DNA of 40,433 bases from the NCBI GenBank assembly GCA_034722435.1, contig JAYENX010000028.1:1-40433 (forward strand), in the 5' to 3' direction. Origin of the DNA: Nanobdellota archaeon. Its GTDB lineage: Archaea > Nanobdellota > Nanobdellia > Woesearchaeales > JAHWHD01. Below are positions 20,278 through 26,383 of this stretch, one piece after another; the stretch's first letter is position 1; every line of letters starts with the position of its first letter. The notes beneath the pieces are model-generated. The model was not told where the DNA came from, searched no databases, and saw nothing but the letters and a program-made list of their open reading frames with translations. A program made the translations under genes and the position numbers.

Positions 20278-21423
20278 ATGTTAGATTTAATCTGGTATTT
20301 CTTGCCAATGATTTTGTTTTTAGGAATTATTACTAGTTATCAAGATATTAAAATTGGTAAGATTAAGAATAAATGGGTTTTGTTAGGTTTAGTTTATGCG
20401 TTAGTTGTTAATTTAATTTTGATTTTTTATTTGAATTATACTTCAGGTATAAGGATACATTATGTTTATGAACTTTTTACTAATTTTATTTTTTCAGTTG
20501 TAGTTGGTTTTGGTTTATGGTATTTTGGTGTTTGGAGTGCCGCAGACGGGAAATTGTTTATTGCGTTTTCAGCTTTAGTTCCATTATCGGTGTATGCGCT
20601 TGGTTATCATGAATGGATTCCTTGTTTTACGTTGTTGTTAAACATCTTTTTGTTAAGCTTATTATTTTTGGTTTTGTTGATGTTTAGAAAAACTCAATTA
20701 CATAATTTAAAAAGGGTTGTTCGTTATTTTAAGACTGAATTTTTCAATTTTTACAATCTTTTTGTTTCGATTCTTAGTATTTTCACAATTTCTTGGTTTG
20801 TCCAGATATTGTTTAGATTTGCAGATATTGATGATTACTTGCTTAATTTTTTTTTAGTTATAGTCTTAATGTCTGTACTTAATAAAAAAGGAAGAAAGTT
20901 TCTTTATGTTTCAATACCTGTATTGATAATTAGACTTTTTGTAGATAGGTCAGTATTTAGTTATGAATTTTTGTTACAGTTTATTATTATCATTTTTTTA
21001 TGGAGAATCTTGCAAAGTTTTCTTTCTGGAAGCATCTCTAGGCTTGGGAAAGAGATATTTTCAAATGAGATTAAGCTTAAAGAGTTAAAGCCCGGTATGG
21101 TATTAAGCGATTCCATAATAAAAACTCGTAAATTAACACGGGTGGAGAGGTCTTTGATTGAAAAACAAATGTTAGTTACTGTTAAAAAAAATGATTATCA
21201 TTATATTTTAGGTGGAAAAGGTTCGGATAATGCTTCTAAATTTATTGATCCTGAAGCTGAAGGACTTAGTGAAAAAGAAGTTGAAGAAATAAATGGTCTT
21301 GAATTTGATAAGATTAGAGTTAGTCAAACAATTCCTTTTGCACCTTTGATCTTTTTAGGTGTTTTATTAACTATTTTGCTGAATGGAAATGTTTTAATAT
21401 CAGTAATTCTTGCTTTTTTTTGA
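20278..21423 (+). CDS. A24-family (prepilin/preflagellin type, FlaK/EppA-like) aspartic peptidase with extra TM helices
   Basis: First Asp in TSYQDIKIGKI, second in WSAADGKLF (GxGD variant), C-terminal archaeal peptidase domain ELKPGMVL...EGLS...IPFAPLIFLG; polytopic membrane protein. Confidence 0.8.
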   Translation: MLDLIWYFLPMILFLGIITSYQDIKIGKIKNKWVLLGLVYALVVNLILIFYLNYTSGIRIHYVYELFTNFIFSVVVGFGLWYFGVWSAADGKLFIAFSALVPLSVYALGYHEWIPCFTLLLNIFLLSLLFLVLLMFRKTQLHNLKRVVRYFKTEFFNFYNLFVSILSIFTISWFVQILFRFADIDDYLLNFFLVIVLMSVLNKKGRKFLYVSIPVLIIRLFVDRSVFSYEFLLQFIIIIFLWRILQSFLSGSISRLGKEIFSNEIKLKELKPGMVLSDSIIKTRKLTRVERSLIEKQMLVTVKKNDYHYILGGKGSDNASKFIDPEAEGLSEKEVEEINGLEFDKIRVSQTIPFAPLIFLGVLLTILLNGNVLISVILAFF

Positions 21424-21833
21424 TGGTAGAATTAAGCAATTTAGATATTGACGAGAAAGAAGGCGTTTGTTATATTTCTATAAATCCTAAGATATATCCT
21501 TTGGATGTAATATCTTCAGCAGCTTATGTTTTTTTAGATAGGGCTTATTTAATTTTAGACGGAGATCCTGATAATGAGGTTGTTGTAGAGATGAGATCAA
21601 AATTTGGTGCCGATCTAAAGCAATTAGGTCTTGAATTTAATAATGAACTCTTAAATTATCTAGAATATTCAAAAAGGGCTGAGAAGTCTTTGCCTATAAG
21701 GACTGCCATTATGCAAAGAGCTTTATTAACCAATGATGTTGATAAAGTTGAATCTGAAAATGTCAGTTATCTTGAAGATCCGGAAAATATTGCAGTACTT
21801 TGGGAAGAGAAGCATGAGAAAGATGAATCTTGA
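21423..21833 (+). CDS. hxsD: HxsD-like protein (His-Xaa-Ser system)
   Basis: INPKIYPLDVISSAAYVFLDRAY and EFNNELLNY...IRTAIMQRAL resemble HxsD. ATG overlaps the peptidase stop (TGATG). Confidence 0.8.
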   Translation: MVELSNLDIDEKEGVCYISINPKIYPLDVISSAAYVFLDRAYLILDGDPDNEVVVEMRSKFGADLKQLGLEFNNELLNYLEYSKRAEKSLPIRTAIMQRALLTNDVDKVESENVSYLEDPENIAVLWEEKHEKDES

Positions 21834-22065
21834 AATAAAAAATAGTTCTGTTGTTATTAAATTAAATAAAGTTTTTTATAATTTTGATACTGTGAAGTCT
21901 TCATTAGAAGATTATTCTGAATTAATGGTTGCTGAAGTTAATTATGATGATGTCGATAATATAATACTTGAACTCATACCAAAAAATTTATCCCTTTTAC
22001 CTCAAATTGGTCAAGAGTTCTGTAATTATGTTTTTGCTAAGATGAAGAATCAGCAGTTAATATAA
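21823..22065 (+). CDS. Second, short HxsD-like protein
   Basis: LNKVFYNFDTVKSSLEDY...IGQEFCNYVF parallels the preceding protein. Likely start is 21823 (or 21814) rather than 21733. Confidence 0.65.
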   Translation: MNLEIKNSSVVIKLNKVFYNFDTVKSSLEDYSELMVAEVNYDDVDNIILELIPKNLSLLPQIGQEFCNYVFAKMKNQQLI

Positions 22066-22106: not shown

Positions 22107-22919
22107 ATGGACGAAAATAATAAACCAGTACATTCAATATCTTTGTATAAAATTGCTTTAATCATTATTTTTATTATATTTATATTATTGGCAATTTACA
22201 TTTTTTTACCTAAAGAAGTGGTCGAATCAGGAATTGAATCAGAACTAGAGGTTACTACATCTCCTGAATTTGTTGATTCTTTGGCTCAAGATATTAAAAA
22301 ATTGGATGCTGAGTTAAATGTTTGTAAGTCTGATGATTTCATGAATAGGTGTAATGTTTTTAAGAATAAAGATGTAAGTATGTGTAATTCTATAAATAAT
22401 CCTGCTAGGGCTTTAGGTTGTAAAGTGGATTATTTTATTACGATTGGTGCAATGAACAACAATTTGGAAGAATGTGATTTTATTGCAGATGTTGAATTCG
22501 GTACTTATTGTAGAGCTTTGATATCAGAAAATCTTGAATTATGTAATGATTTGCAAGATCAAAGCAATAAGGATATTTGTATTTCTATAATTTCTTTGAT
22601 GAGCAATCTTGAAGCTGAACATACAGATTATTCTATAAATTATTATTATTATCTTAAAGCATTAAAAAGAAAGAGTGTTATAGAGTGTGATATGATTAGA
22701 GGATTTAATTCTGATGATTTTGAACTTATTAACCAGTGTAAATTAATTCTTGGTCAGAGTGTTGAGTGTACATCAAAAATAAAAGAGAGTTGTGAAGATG
22801 CTTATTATTATAAACTTGCATTATTGAAATCTAATGTTGATGATTGTGATTCTATAATTGATTCCAATTTAAAAGAAGATTGCAAGTTAGATGTAGAAGC
22901 AGGTATTACTTTTATTTAA
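22107..22919 (+). CDS. Membrane-anchored protein with tandem Cys-pair helical repeats
   Basis: N-terminal TM IALIIIFIIFILLAIYIFL; about seven C-x(7-16)-C modules, e.g. CDFIADVEFGTYC and CDSIIDSNLKEDC. Confidence 0.75.
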   Translation: MDENNKPVHSISLYKIALIIIFIIFILLAIYIFLPKEVVESGIESELEVTTSPEFVDSLAQDIKKLDAELNVCKSDDFMNRCNVFKNKDVSMCNSINNPARALGCKVDYFITIGAMNNNLEECDFIADVEFGTYCRALISENLELCNDLQDQSNKDICISIISLMSNLEAEHTDYSINYYYYLKALKRKSVIECDMIRGFNSDDFELINQCKLILGQSVECTSKIKESCEDAYYYKLALLKSNVDDCDSIIDSNLKEDCKLDVEAGITFI

Positions 22920-22920
22920 G

Positions 22921-24300
22921 ATGGATTTAGTAAAAAATTTTTTTAGAACTAGGAGAATTGATGATAATTATTTTCTTACTAATGATTATGGCGGTTATTG
23001 TATACTCAATGAAAAAGAGTATGGTGAGTTAAGATCAGGTAGTATTAGTGATGAGCTTAAACAGAGATTAAGAAATTCTCATATTCTTATAGATGAAAAA
23101 GATTTAGATAGATTGATTTCACTTACAAAAAAAAGATATTCATTTCTTATGCAAGGGACTTCTTTACATATCATCATTCCGACTTTACGGTGTAATATGA
23201 AATGTATTTATTGTCATGCTAGTTCTAGACCTGTTGATGATTTAAGTTGTAATATGGATGAAGAGATTGCGAAGAAGACCGTAGATTTTATTTTTCAATC
23301 TCCTGCAAAAGGGCTGTGTATTGAATTTCAGGGAGGTGAGCCTTTGCTTAATTGGCCTATCTTGAAATTTGTTGTTTCTTATGCTAAAGAGTTGAATAAA
23401 TCACATAATAAAAATCTTTTATTTACTGTTGTGACTAATCTTTCTTTGATGGATGAAGATAAAATGAATTTTTTTATAGATGAAGGTGTGGATATTTGTA
23501 CATCTCTTGATGGTCATAAAGAGTTACATGATAAGAACAGGCTTTTAGTTGGAGGCAGTAATTATGATCAAGTGTTATTTTGGCTGAAAAAAATAAATGA
23601 AGAATATTTAAAGAGAGGCATAAAAGAAAAACGTGTTCATGCACTCCCTACAATAACAAAAGAAAGTTTGAAATATTCTAGGCAGATAATTGATGAATAT
23701 ATTAAACTTGGATTGAAAGAGATACATATCAGATTTCTTAATAATTTAGGTGTTGCAAAGGATTCGTGGTTTAATATTAATTATAGTGTATATGATTTTA
23801 TGAAATTTTGGATTGATTCTGTTGAATATATTAAAGAGTTGCAAAAGCAAGGAATTGAGATCAATGAGCGCATGGTTAAGATAATGTTTTCAAAGATTGA
23901 AACTGGTGAAGACCCTAATTATCTTGATTTAAGAAGTCCTTGTGGTGCTGCGATTGGGCAGTTAGCTTATAGTTATAATGGTGATATATTTACTTGCGAT
24001 GAAGCACGTATGATTGGAAATAATGATCTGTTTCTTTTAGGGAATGTTAAATTTAGCAAGTATTCGGATATTGTAACTTGTGATAAAGCTTGCGCAACTG
24101 TAAACTCTTCAATAAATGATCAGTATATATGTGATACTTGTGCTTATAAGCCATACTGTGGACTTTGTCCTGTTTGTGCTTATGCTGAGCAAGGAACAAT
24201 AATAACTAAAGTTTCTGATTCAAGTAGATGTAAGATATTTAAGCAACAGTTTGATTGGGTTATCAAAGAAAAGTTTATAAACCTAAAAATCTCTAAATAG
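22921..24300 (+). CDS. hxsB: Radical SAM/SPASM maturase, HxsB-like
   Basis: TSLHIIIPTLRCNMKCIYCH (CxxxCxxC), IEFQGGEPLLN, LRSPCGAAIGQLAY..GDIFTCDE, CDTCAYKPYCGLCPVC SPASM. Confidence 0.9.
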   Translation: MDLVKNFFRTRRIDDNYFLTNDYGGYCILNEKEYGELRSGSISDELKQRLRNSHILIDEKDLDRLISLTKKRYSFLMQGTSLHIIIPTLRCNMKCIYCHASSRPVDDLSCNMDEEIAKKTVDFIFQSPAKGLCIEFQGGEPLLNWPILKFVVSYAKELNKSHNKNLLFTVVTNLSLMDEDKMNFFIDEGVDICTSLDGHKELHDKNRLLVGGSNYDQVLFWLKKINEEYLKRGIKEKRVHALPTITKESLKYSRQIIDEYIKLGLKEIHIRFLNNLGVAKDSWFNINYSVYDFMKFWIDSVEYIKELQKQGIEINERMVKIMFSKIETGEDPNYLDLRSPCGAAIGQLAYSYNGDIFTCDEARMIGNNDLFLLGNVKFSKYSDIVTCDKACATVNSSINDQYICDTCAYKPYCGLCPVCAYAEQGTIITKVSDSSRCKIFKQQFDWVIKEKFINLKISK

Positions 24301-24304
24301 TTAA

Positions 24305-24619
24305 ATGGCAGTTTTTCCTAAAATAAAGAGAAAAGTGAATTCTTTTTTACGTAATGAGGAAGGTAAAATTAGTAAAGAAAAGATTATCAAAGCTGGTGTT
24401 TTATTAAGTATTGTTGCAATTGGAACAGCGAAATCTGCTAAAGCAGATTGTGTCAGTTCACTTAATGCCAATACTGGAGGAACACATACAAATCATTGTA
24501 ACAGTCCTGTTGATGTTGTATACGATTCTGCTGCTATTACTGCTACAGGCACTCATGGTCATGCGACACATAGTAATCATGCTAGTCATGGAAGTCATGG
24601 TCACGGTGGTGCTTCTTGA
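24305..24619 (+). CDS. His-Xaa-Ser/Asn/Thr repeat precursor peptide (HxsA-like)
   Basis: 104 aa with 9 His; HAT-HSN-HAS-HGS-H puts His at exact 3-residue spacing (H86, 89, 92, 95, 98), plus HTN-HCN; sits between two rSAM genes with 4-6 bp gaps. Confidence 0.85.
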   Translation: MAVFPKIKRKVNSFLRNEEGKISKEKIIKAGVLLSIVAIGTAKSAKADCVSSLNANTGGTHTNHCNSPVDVVYDSAAITATGTHGHATHSNHASHGSHGHGGAS

Positions 24620-24625
24620 AGTAAA

Positions 24626-26383
24626 ATGAGTCAAAATAAAATAGAATTTAATTTTTTTGATGAATCTTTTCTCTTGTATCTTAAAACTTCAATTGATTTT
24701 GATAATATTGTTAAACTAAATTCGCAAACTTTTTTGGTATTAAAAGATTTTAAAAAATATATTGCTAAATTTATATATGGAAATCAATTGAAAATTGATG
24801 TTGATTCTGTAGTTAATTTTATTGACGCTTATAATGAACTGAATGTTAATACTCCAAAGATTGTTGAATTTAAAGAAGAAAATAATTTTTATTTTTTTTT
24901 AGTTGAATTTATTGAAGGCGTTTCTATGAAATCTAATGAGAAATATGATTTTATTAATCTTTCCAGGGTTAAGTTACTTGCAAAATCATTAGCTGATTTT
25001 CATGAACCTTGTTTGATGATGGGGGAATATGGATTACAGACAATAATACATGGGGATTTGAATATTGGTAATATTTTAAGATCTAATTCCAGATATTATT
25101 TTATAGATAATGTGATTAATTTAATGAAATTTTCAGAAAAACTTTATCAAGACCCTGCTTTAGATGTTGCAAAGATTATTTTGAGTTTAAGAGAATCTTG
25201 TTTCTGGAAACCTTCCTTTGAAAATAAATTTATCTTAGAATATATTAATCATTTGAGTGTTGGAGTAATTTATGATGCTTTTTTCAGAAAAGTTATTTCT
25301 TTAATAAAAGAATCAGAAATGCAATTGAAAAATCCTAAACTACTTTTGTCTCATGCATCTTTTCAGTTAACTTCTGATTGTAATCTTAATTGTAAATATT
25401 GTTATCAACATGAAAAATCTGGAAAAAGTATGAGTTTTGATGAATTTACTAATGCATTTTCTAAATTATTGGGCTTTTTGAATAAAAATGTTGAGTTTGT
25501 ATTTACTGGTGGAGAACCGCTTTTGAACTTTGACCTTTTAAAAGAGGCAGTGAATAGTATTAAAACAGTTAAAGAGTTAAATCCGCAGTTTAAGATATTG
25601 ACTAATGGTCTTTTGTTGAATTCTGAAATAATTTCTTTTTTAAAAGAGAATGAATTTTTAGTTGCGATAAGTATTGATGGTGATAAGAGTAATGTTTTTA
25701 GAATATGTGATGAGCTAAAGTTACAATTAGAGTTAGAAAATAGTGTAAAATTGCTTGTTAGTAGTGGTTGTAATTATTATGCTCGTATGACTATTCATCC
25801 TACGAGTGCGAAATTTTTATATGATGATTTTAAGTATTTGAAGTCTTTAGGTGTTAAGAAGTTTGCGATTGAACCTTGTTTGAATTCAGGTATTTTTTGG
25901 GGTGAACATTCTGAAGACTTTTTGAGTAATTATAGAAAGATAGTGGAAAATTTAGCTCTTGATTTTAATACTGATTCTGAATTGTTTTTTAGAGATTTAA
26001 ATTTTTTTGATACTAAAATTTTAGAATCTACGAATCCTGCAGAAGAATTTTATTGTGCAAATTGTTCGGATACTGTGTTTGTATCTGCTGAAGGGGGAAT
26101 ATATTTTGCTGAGTGCGGTATGGGTGCTTATTTTAAGAAAAAAAAATATTTTATTGGCGATTTATTAGGTGGTCTTGACTATGATCTAATTAATAAATCT
26201 AGATCGGAGCTAATTCAGAAATTTCAGATAAATGATCAAGAGATATATTGTGGTAAACCTTGTCTAAGTTGTAATGTAGTAACTGGAGAAAAATTAGGTG
26301 ATCAAGAATTTTTAGATCTTTATAAATTAAATCAAAAAAGATATGCTGTTGCTAGGGATGTTTATGAGAAAATTAAGGTCTAA
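24626..26383 (+). CDS. Fusion of an APH/choline-kinase-like phosphotransferase and a radical SAM (SPASM/Twitch-type) domain
   Basis: Kinase half: TPKIV, LVEFIEG, LADFH, IHGDLNIGNIL, FIDN, DPALDVA. rSAM half: CNLNCKYC at aa 252, FTGGEPLLN, TNG, ISIDG, C-terminal Cys clusters. No stop between the halves. Confidence 0.85.
   Translation: MSQNKIEFNFFDESFLLYLKTSIDFDNIVKLNSQTFLVLKDFKKYIAKFIYGNQLKIDVDSVVNFIDAYNELNVNTPKIVEFKEENNFYFFLVEFIEGVSMKSNEKYDFINLSRVKLLAKSLADFHEPCLMMGEYGLQTIIHGDLNIGNILRSNSRYYFIDNVINLMKFSEKLYQDPALDVAKIILSLRESCFWKPSFENKFILEYINHLSVGVIYDAFFRKVISLIKESEMQLKNPKLLLSHASFQLTSDCNLNCKYCYQHEKSGKSMSFDEFTNAFSKLLGFLNKNVEFVFTGGEPLLNFDLLKEAVNSIKTVKELNPQFKILTNGLLLNSEIISFLKENEFLVAISIDGDKSNVFRICDELKLQLELENSVKLLVSSGCNYYARMTIHPTSAKFLYDDFKYLKSLGVKKFAIEPCLNSGIFWGEHSEDFLSNYRKIVENLALDFNTDSELFFRDLNFFDTKILESTNPAEEFYCANCSDTVFVSAEGGIYFAECGMGAYFKKKKYFIGDLLGGLDYDLINKSRSELIQKFQINDQEIYCGKPCLSCNVVTGEKLGDQEFLDLYKLNQKRYAVARDVYEKIKV

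Follow-up and report, generated by a model that had tools for sequence, protein, structure and literature searches.

The fused gene and its genomic setting

We analyzed a stretch of 40,433 nucleotides from a Nanobdellota archaeon (contig JAYENX010000028.1 of GenBank assembly GCA_034722435.1), hereafter the window, with emphasis on a gene whose product joins a predicted kinase-fold domain to a radical S-adenosylmethionine (SAM) domain in a single polypeptide. The genome assembly amounts to 1.30 Mb in 60 contigs and is 94.5% complete. The fused gene occupies positions 24626–26383 of the forward strand as a single open frame from ATG to TAA (585 codons), and its start codon follows the stop codon of a putative precursor gene by 6 nt. 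The 585-aa product (P0001) comprises an N-terminal APH-like kinase domain of ~230 aa (residues 1–231; 24626–25318), a linker that includes Met232 (25319–25366), and a radical SAM domain with a reduced SPASM region; two full-length homologs, P0002 and P0121, share this architecture. Recomputed coordinates place H142 at 25049, M232 at 25319, and C252 at 25379. The motifs named in the original prediction, which had been made from the sequence alone, were all found where it had placed them (YIAK, HGDLNIGN, FID, CNLNCKYC, GGEP, and the C-terminal Cys residues). Its description of one frame that lies directly 3' of the precursor gene and carries an APH-type kinase with intact catalytic residues together with a radical SAM enzyme is borne out by the open reading frame, the motifs, and the fold searches.

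An assembly or sequencing error that joins two adjacent genes might likewise produce such a frame, and both the internal Met232, located 20 residues ahead of the radical SAM Cys motif, and the fact that P0001 forms a singleton cluster could be taken in that sense. However, the same fusion is present in two independent assemblies with an alignable linker, in which the alignment of the three proteins displays neither a conserved Met nor a gap. GC content is even across the junction, at 25–30% in the fused gene as well as in the neighboring genes, and the junction DNA contains no homopolymer and no frame irregularity. We therefore reject an artefact as vanishingly improbable; the fused gene encodes a genuine single protein.

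The gene is embedded in a cluster resembling the His-Xaa-Ser (Hxs) system. At its head, an A24-type peptidase gene (20278–21423) and two HxsD-like genes form a conserved cluster core on the forward strand (20278–22065; Pfam/NCBIfam matches), followed by a gene for a 270-aa Cys-rich protein (22107–22919, forward strand) and by the gene for the radical SAM/SPASM maturase HxsB (22921–24300, forward strand), which scores 452 bits against TIGR03978 compared with a cut-off of 370. Next comes the HxsA-like precursor of 104 aa, the presumed substrate (24305–24619, forward strand; NCBIfam HxsA3, E 1.9e-8, below cut-off), with a hydrophobic segment in its leader and a His-rich tail that is rich in H-x-S and H-x-T. 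Downstream of the fused gene, a convergent accessory module on the reverse strand (26373–28898; Pfam/NCBIfam) consists of a DUF483 protein gene (26373–27221) and two radical SAM genes matching HxsC and HxsC4 (27187–28898), both below cut-offs. The HxsA3, HxsC, HxsC4, and HxsD models find their best matches at this locus, in each case below cut-off, and the locus can be counted among the Hxs systems. As most of these family matches remain below cut-offs, we regard it as a His-Xaa-Ser system of a divergent archaeal type.

The Cys-rich protein has many spaced Cys residues and an N-terminal hydrophobic segment, by which it is probably membrane-anchored. It has no Pfam or NCBIfam match and no counterpart in seven related Hxs loci (L199–L205). 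Among the window and these seven loci, the Cys-rich gene and the kinase-radical SAM fusion are both confined to the cluster of the window.

Predicted kinase-fold and radical SAM domains

The N-terminal domain contains the residues expected of a phosphotransferase. K48 within YIAK (24767–24769, forward strand) is invariant in the three fusions and occupies the strand preceding the first long helix of the structural model, a position from which it is predicted to act as the ATP-binding Lys. The catalytic loop HGDLNIGN (residues 142–149; 25049–25072, forward strand) corresponds to the HxDxxxxN (Brenner) motif of PF01636 and the PKinase clan, with D144 as predicted base and N149 as predicted Mg ligand; H142, G143, D144, L145, and N149 are invariant in an alignment of the three fusions with 27 Bud32-like kinases. 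A third segment extends from FID (residues 159–161), whose D161 would be the DFG-equivalent metal-binding Asp, to DPALD (D176, D180; 25100–25165, forward strand), and F159, I160, D161, D176, P177, and D180 do not vary among the fusions. On the model, K48 and D161 would thus supply the ATP-binding Lys and the DFG-equivalent Asp of the APH/protein-kinase-like superfamily.

Profile matches to known families are borderline. P0001 reaches 22.7 bits against the Pfam APH model, for which the cut-off is 23.2, whereas its homolog P0121 exceeds the EcKL cut-off (34.8 vs 22 bits) and P0002 scores 19.8 bits against EcKL. Comparison of the N-terminal domain with PDB sequences gave APH-family matches that are sub-significant only (E 0.26–0.78); the regions aligned are the catalytic segments of glucosamine kinase and the macrolide 2'-phosphotransferase Mph(2'). 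The HGDLNIGN loop pairs with the corresponding loops of both enzymes, and the FID-DPALD segment with that of Mph(2').

Fold comparisons were based on AlphaFold models covering the N-terminal domain only. A first model, computed from the three family members alone, is poor (predicted local distance difference test score, pLDDT, 57.5) and was used as support only; Foldseek nevertheless matched it to kinases exclusively, led by APH(3') at E 1.4e-6. For a second AlphaFold2 model the alignment was enriched with the 27 Bud32-like kinases from related genomes, yielding a pLDDT of 76.3 and a predicted template modeling score of 0.76. Foldseek again ranked APH(3') first (APH(3')-Ia, E 7.6e-7), and VIA-align matched the model to the amicoumacin kinase AmiN (Z 14.8; root-mean-square deviation 3.3 over 214 residues), Bud32 (Z 13.3), the corramycin phosphotransferase (Z 13.3), and APH(3') (Z 12.4), with choline, homoserine, and capreomycin kinases ranking lower (Cph001, Z 11.8). 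The ESM Atlas, with its own model and language-model features, places the domain nearest to small APH-family clusters (score 0.96, TM 0.72–0.74). A bilobal kinase fold is thus recovered by AlphaFold2, VIA-align, Foldseek, and the ESM model, and APH-type kinases come first in the structure prediction and fold searches, as anticipated for the kinase half, although APH-type and Bud32-type folds are not cleanly separable by Z in these models. Judged from the models, residues 1 to ~235 represent a minimal APH-type kinase fold that retains all residues for phosphotransfer, and kinase activity is predicted.

The structural matches at the top of this ranking include AmiN and the corramycin phosphotransferase, with Cph001 further down, and might point to a self-protection or pro-form kinase that phosphorylates the finished, radical SAM-modified peptide and keeps it inactive within the cell until export, as the amicoumacin, corramycin, and capreomycin phosphotransferases do. 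The hydrophobic segment in the precursor leader and the dedicated A24-type peptidase would suit an exported product. Likeness of fold does not show function, however; no phosphatase is seen nearby, and resistance kinases are not usually fused to biosynthetic enzymes, so that we find such a role rather implausible.

The C-terminal half begins with the radical SAM cluster motif C252-x3-C256-x2-C259 (CNLNCKYC, residues 252–259; 25379–25402, forward strand), invariant in the fusions and recognized by the Pfam Radical_SAM model at E 1.6e-13. It is followed by GGEP (residues 295–298; 25508–25519, forward strand), the SAM-binding "GGE" motif, which is likewise invariant and aligns with GGEP of CteB. 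This combination of CxxxCxxC and GGE is that of radical SAM/SPASM peptide maturases. Further downstream lies a reduced SPASM/twitch-like region containing C477, C480, C497, C542, C546, and C549 (26054–26272, forward strand). In the alignment of the three fusions, C382, C480, C497, C542, and C546 are the only invariant auxiliary Cys residues, while C418, C477, and C549 vary, the last being present in P0001 alone. C477/C480...C497 aligns with the CX9-15GX4C part of CteB, but the full seven-Cys SPASM pattern (CX9-15GX4C...CX2CX5CX3C...C) is incomplete, its second part being represented by C542-x3-C546, and P0001 gives no match to the Pfam SPASM model. The designation "SPASM-like" in the original prediction consequently holds for the first half of the pattern, which is clear, and not for the second, which is reduced. 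Judged by the Cys pattern, the protein may bind one complete auxiliary cluster, or additionally a second one that is only partly liganded.

A family-profile search identified CteB (5wgg, E 1.6e-27) as the best solved relative, followed by anSME and SkfB, and the NCBIfam PapB model matches along its entire length with a score of 113 bits, far under its cut-off of 340. No PqqD/RRE family (RRE, the recognition element of RiPPs, peptides ribosomally synthesized and modified after translation) was detected in P0001, in which residues 1–231 adopt the predicted kinase fold instead. As the radical SAM half aligns to CteB residues 84–389, with the core and the CX9-15GX4C segment both included in the alignment, the kinase domain sits where CteB carries its N-terminal leader-binding domain. 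By sequence comparison, the C-terminal ~350 residues are best described as a putative radical SAM enzyme of the CteB/PapB-like kind that lacks an RRE and whose auxiliary-cluster region is reduced.

The resemblance of this half to thioether-forming enzymes also bears on whether HxsA is the substrate at all. A different one could be the Cys-rich protein, whose gene co-occurs with the fusion in the cluster of the window, or a small molecule, for example a 5'-deoxyadenosine-derived sugar arising from the four radical SAM domains. There is a report of a SPASM enzyme from archaea that introduces cross-links into a protein (PMC13692751), and a very weak match to methylthioribose kinase (E 0.78) might hint at the small molecule. 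Yet the fused gene abuts the precursor gene and not the Cys-rich gene, the methylthioribose kinase match is non-significant, and for a salvage kinase one would expect more than three sequences worldwide. A substrate other than HxsA is hence, in our estimation, a poor prospect.

Distribution of the fusion and related archaeal clusters

To determine how widespread the kinase domain is, residues 1–235 were compared by HMMER with all 1.84 billion representative proteins (E <= 0.001). Three proteins were retrieved, P0001 itself, P0002 (615 aa, E 2e-16), and P0121 (567 aa, E 6.9e-5), all of which are kinase-radical SAM fusions. They are 34–36% identical to one another and alignable through the linker, and K48, HGD..N, D161, D176/D180, CxxxCxxC, and GGEP are invariant in all three. 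Each is a singleton, P0002 and P0121 being known from Logan assemblies only. The same search returned no stand-alone relative of the kinase half of any length, so that at this threshold the domain is known solely as part of the fusion. A profile search of a 5.8-billion-protein set added no further members, as evident from the drop in score from 1022 bits for P0002 to 193 bits for proteins with tandem radical SAM domains; more distant members may exist, given that P0121 itself reached E 6.9e-5 by single-sequence search.

The fusion is likewise absent from 400 other genomes drawn evenly from the phylum and from 400 drawn from the order (the samples partly overlap; G243, G333, and G396, all unpublished, are counted in the phylum tallies of kinase relatives and HxsB), and the phylum sample contains no relatives of the kinase domain beyond Bud32-like kinases of ~200 aa. 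It was not found in a same-genus and a same-family genome (G438 and G475, unpublished; 89% and 76% complete). Pattern scans of metagenome and viral contigs recovered ordinary radical SAM relatives only, matching from residue ~205 onward, and a scan of genome contigs gave the same result among the matches listed.

Several candidates were discarded on inspection. One locus that apparently matched back to residue 138 (L114) encodes a SCIFF-type maturase with an RRE. Three ORFs of 607–626 aa with weak matches to the N-terminal domain (in G339, G379, and G057) are unrelated to the fusion: a weak, sub-threshold nucleotidyltransferase match, a PIN-ATPase-KH protein, and a Hanks-type kinase.

Occurrence of the same fusion at 34–36% identity indicates that it is real and predates the divergence of the three proteins; by sequence comparison, the fusion appears old rather than recent. 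The earlier suggestion of a possibly recent fusion, founded on Met232, can thus be set aside, as three divergent proteins share the architecture, Met232 is not conserved, and no separate kinase relative was found in the searched set. Nor do homologous loci have the two halves as separate genes: related Hxs clusters hold a stand-alone relative of the radical SAM half and no kinase. The APH-radical SAM architecture had further been described as belonging to no named family, and we agree, since NCBIfam scores fall far under cut-offs and the family numbers three members among 1.84 billion proteins. No enzyme joining a kinase and a radical SAM domain in one polypeptide came up in a literature search, and to our knowledge none has been described. 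The three proteins may be viewed as an unnamed family of putative bifunctional tailoring enzymes within archaeal Hxs-type clusters.

Of the 400 other genomes in the phylum sample, 50 carry HxsB. The core order peptidase, HxsD1, HxsD2, HxsB, HxsA recurs in L199–L204, and L205 shows HxsD1, HxsD2, and HxsB only; six related loci have a homologous precursor in the corresponding place. Varying sets of HxsC-like radical SAM genes, including two- and three-domain radical SAM proteins and HxsC-DUF483 fusions, come after the core in five of the seven loci. Neither G438 nor G475, the same-genus and same-family genomes, yielded HxsB, a provisional result at their respective completeness. Such a patchy distribution of Hxs would fit a mobile or defence-type island.

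These loci differ from one another in several respects. The number of genes in the accessory module varies from locus to locus. Proteins of 560–955 aa with two or three tandem radical SAM domains occur in related archaeal Hxs clusters (L199:10773–12626, L199:13618–16308, L201:5000–6736, and L204:10609–12297) and in metagenomes, with P0003–P0006 and P0008–P0010 as matches in the global search. The DUF483-like sequence, a gene of its own on the reverse strand of the window, lies inside HxsC-matching ORFs of ~610–620 aa at L200:3889–5718 and L204:17997–19862, which suggests a DUF483-radical SAM fusion in these loci. Among the precursors, the one at L204:9589–9873 lacks both Cys residues (A-D-C and (N/D)-H-C-N) common to the window and five other related precursors, and contains a long pure H-S-S-H-S-S repeat instead.

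A probable origin of the C-terminal half is found in the same clusters. In genome G332, a stand-alone radical SAM protein of 391 aa (L201:6727–7902) is encoded with its end ~1 kb from the hxsA 3' end. Among single-domain proteins it matches the radical SAM half best (108 bits over the full length, compared with 94 bits for the best stand-alone protein globally), and it has no N-terminal domain of any kind. No kinase gene accompanies stand-alone relatives of the radical SAM half in the seven related loci. From these comparisons we infer that an RRE-less accessory radical SAM enzyme of Hxs clusters gained the kinase domain.

Its position at the N-terminus, in the place of the leader-binding domain of CteB, raises the question whether the added domain transfers phosphate at all. 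It could instead be a substrate-docking or nucleotide-sensing module that replaces the RRE, holding the precursor or gating the enzyme through ATP and leaving no phosphate behind. Acting as an ATPase switch is the main role of minimal kinases such as Bud32 (KEOPS), and the close structural match to Bud32 as well as the bare N-terminus of the stand-alone relative would be in line with such a role. K48, D144, N149, and D161 are nevertheless invariant at 34–36% identity, and pure scaffolds usually lose residues of this kind; we accordingly consider a docking or sensing module unlikely, while giving it some weight.

Proposed function and comparison with known systems

Taken together, the observations are probably best explained, in a judgment of modest confidence, by an anciently fused two-domain tailoring enzyme of an archaeal Hxs-type cluster that would both phosphorylate and radically modify the precursor. 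In this scheme, the fused enzyme would act on the adjacent HxsA-like precursor. Its kinase domain would use ATP to O-phosphorylate Ser/Thr residues in the core rich in H-x-S/T, its radical SAM domain would abstract a hydrogen atom from the same substrate or introduce a cross-link, and both steps would be coupled on one polypeptide. Conservation of the catalytic residues in both halves implies that two chemistries act on one substrate. APH-type kinases phosphorylate hydroxyls, and Ser/Thr is for this reason a likelier target than His. Phosphorylation of the Ser/Thr core coupled to radical chemistry, as originally proposed, may be regarded as a reasonable inference from the predicted domains.

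Several observations weigh against this interpretation. Neither a lyase nor a phosphatase partner is present. A search with PF17914 found no HopA1-type lyase in the 94.5%-complete genome, and control genomes responded to the same search; this extends to the whole genome the earlier remark that no HopA1-like lyase is visible at the locus. A phosphorylate-then-eliminate route in the style of lanthipeptides is therefore unsupported as such. The link between the fusion and Hxs depends on one locus and on the affinity of the radical SAM half. Moreover, HxsB occurs in 50 of 400 genomes, yet a relative of the kinase domain beyond the Bud32-like proteins is found in none of the 400, from which it follows that the Hxs system works without a kinase domain. 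On the structural side, P0001 falls 0.5 bit short of the Pfam APH cut-off, the N-lobe is poorly resolved in the second model (pLDDT 33–62 for residues 1–40), and enrichment with Bud32-like sequences could bias that model toward a kinase fold; the three-sequence and ESM models agree with it nonetheless.

One more specific version of the coupled mechanism would dispense with a lyase. Phosphorylation might prime the radical chemistry: a phosphate would be placed on Ser/Thr of the H-x-S/T motifs, the radical SAM domain would abstract a neighboring hydrogen, and the phosphate would then leave in a radical-assisted beta-elimination or substitution, generating a dehydro residue or a His-linked cross-link. 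We hold this version to be a speculative one with a small chance of being right; if true, an archaeal cluster related to an anti-phage system would follow a maturation logic that is not known to have been described for RiPPs or for proteins.

Peptide tailoring by kinases is established, as is tailoring by radical SAM enzymes, and it is their pairing in one polypeptide that constitutes the new element. With three sequences in total, the fusion is a curiosity of the Hxs system and not a core part of it. The archaeal clusters greatly exceed the bacterial system in complexity; a putative bifunctional enzyme adjoining its presumed substrate offers a tractable way into archaeal Hxs chemistry.

The closest known system as a whole is bacterial HXS, defined by HxsA-D (TIGR03976-03979; Haft & Basu 2011; Li et al., Nat Commun 2026, PMC13128918), whose function in anti-phage defence was shown only in 2026 (PMC13128918). 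There, HxsB, HxsC, and HxsD covalently mature HxsA, with N-terminal processing and a shift of +8 Da in the SHRSS motif; the words kinase and phosphoryl- are absent from that report (PMC13128918). Two radical SAM enzymes and HxsD thus mature a His-x-Ser repeat protein in bacteria, and the window likewise contains HxsB together with HxsA-, HxsC-, and HxsD-like genes. In contrast to the bacterial loci, the archaeal clusters also contain a gene for an A24-type peptidase, a pair of HxsD-like genes, and extra radical SAM genes in variable sets. The fused protein itself is neither HxsB nor HxsC, scoring 65.7 bits against the HxsB model (cut-off 370).

For the C-terminal half, the thioether-forming CteB/PapB/SCIFF maturases are the closest sequence relatives, with CxxxCxxC, GGEP, and CX9-15GX4C in common. 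Unlike them, the fused protein has a predicted kinase domain in the place of the RRE and a second SPASM Cys half reduced to CxxxC, and none of its NCBIfam scores reaches an equivalog cut-off.

For the N-terminal half, the comparison is with APH-type kinases, whose role in RiPP tailoring is established for class V lanthipeptide and thioamitide pathways. LxmK and the kinases of thioamitide and kintamdin pathways, as well as the self-resistance enzymes AmiN, corramycin phosphotransferase, and Cph, resemble the domain in predicted fold and catalytic residues and act on peptides or peptide-like molecules. They are, however, stand-alone proteins of 260–350 aa, whereas the fused domain, of ~230 aa, forms one covalent chain with a radical SAM enzyme, and the RiPP kinases partner with a HopA1-like lyase, of which none was found in this genome. 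Bud32/PRPK, the KEOPS kinase, is similarly small (~200 aa) and is the sole sequence-detectable relative in related genomes (E 1e-7 to 1e-2). The fusion family differs from it in having neither of the Bud32 signatures HGDLTTSN and RGR(Y/K), and the genome holds a separate, putative Bud32-like match on contig C34 (C34:11842–12279, reverse strand, genome G000). That match is weak and contains one in-frame TAA within the matched stretch, which could be due to a match overrunning the gene end or to a broken gene. By language-model features and by structure, APH clusters lie nearer to the fused domain than Bud32 does.

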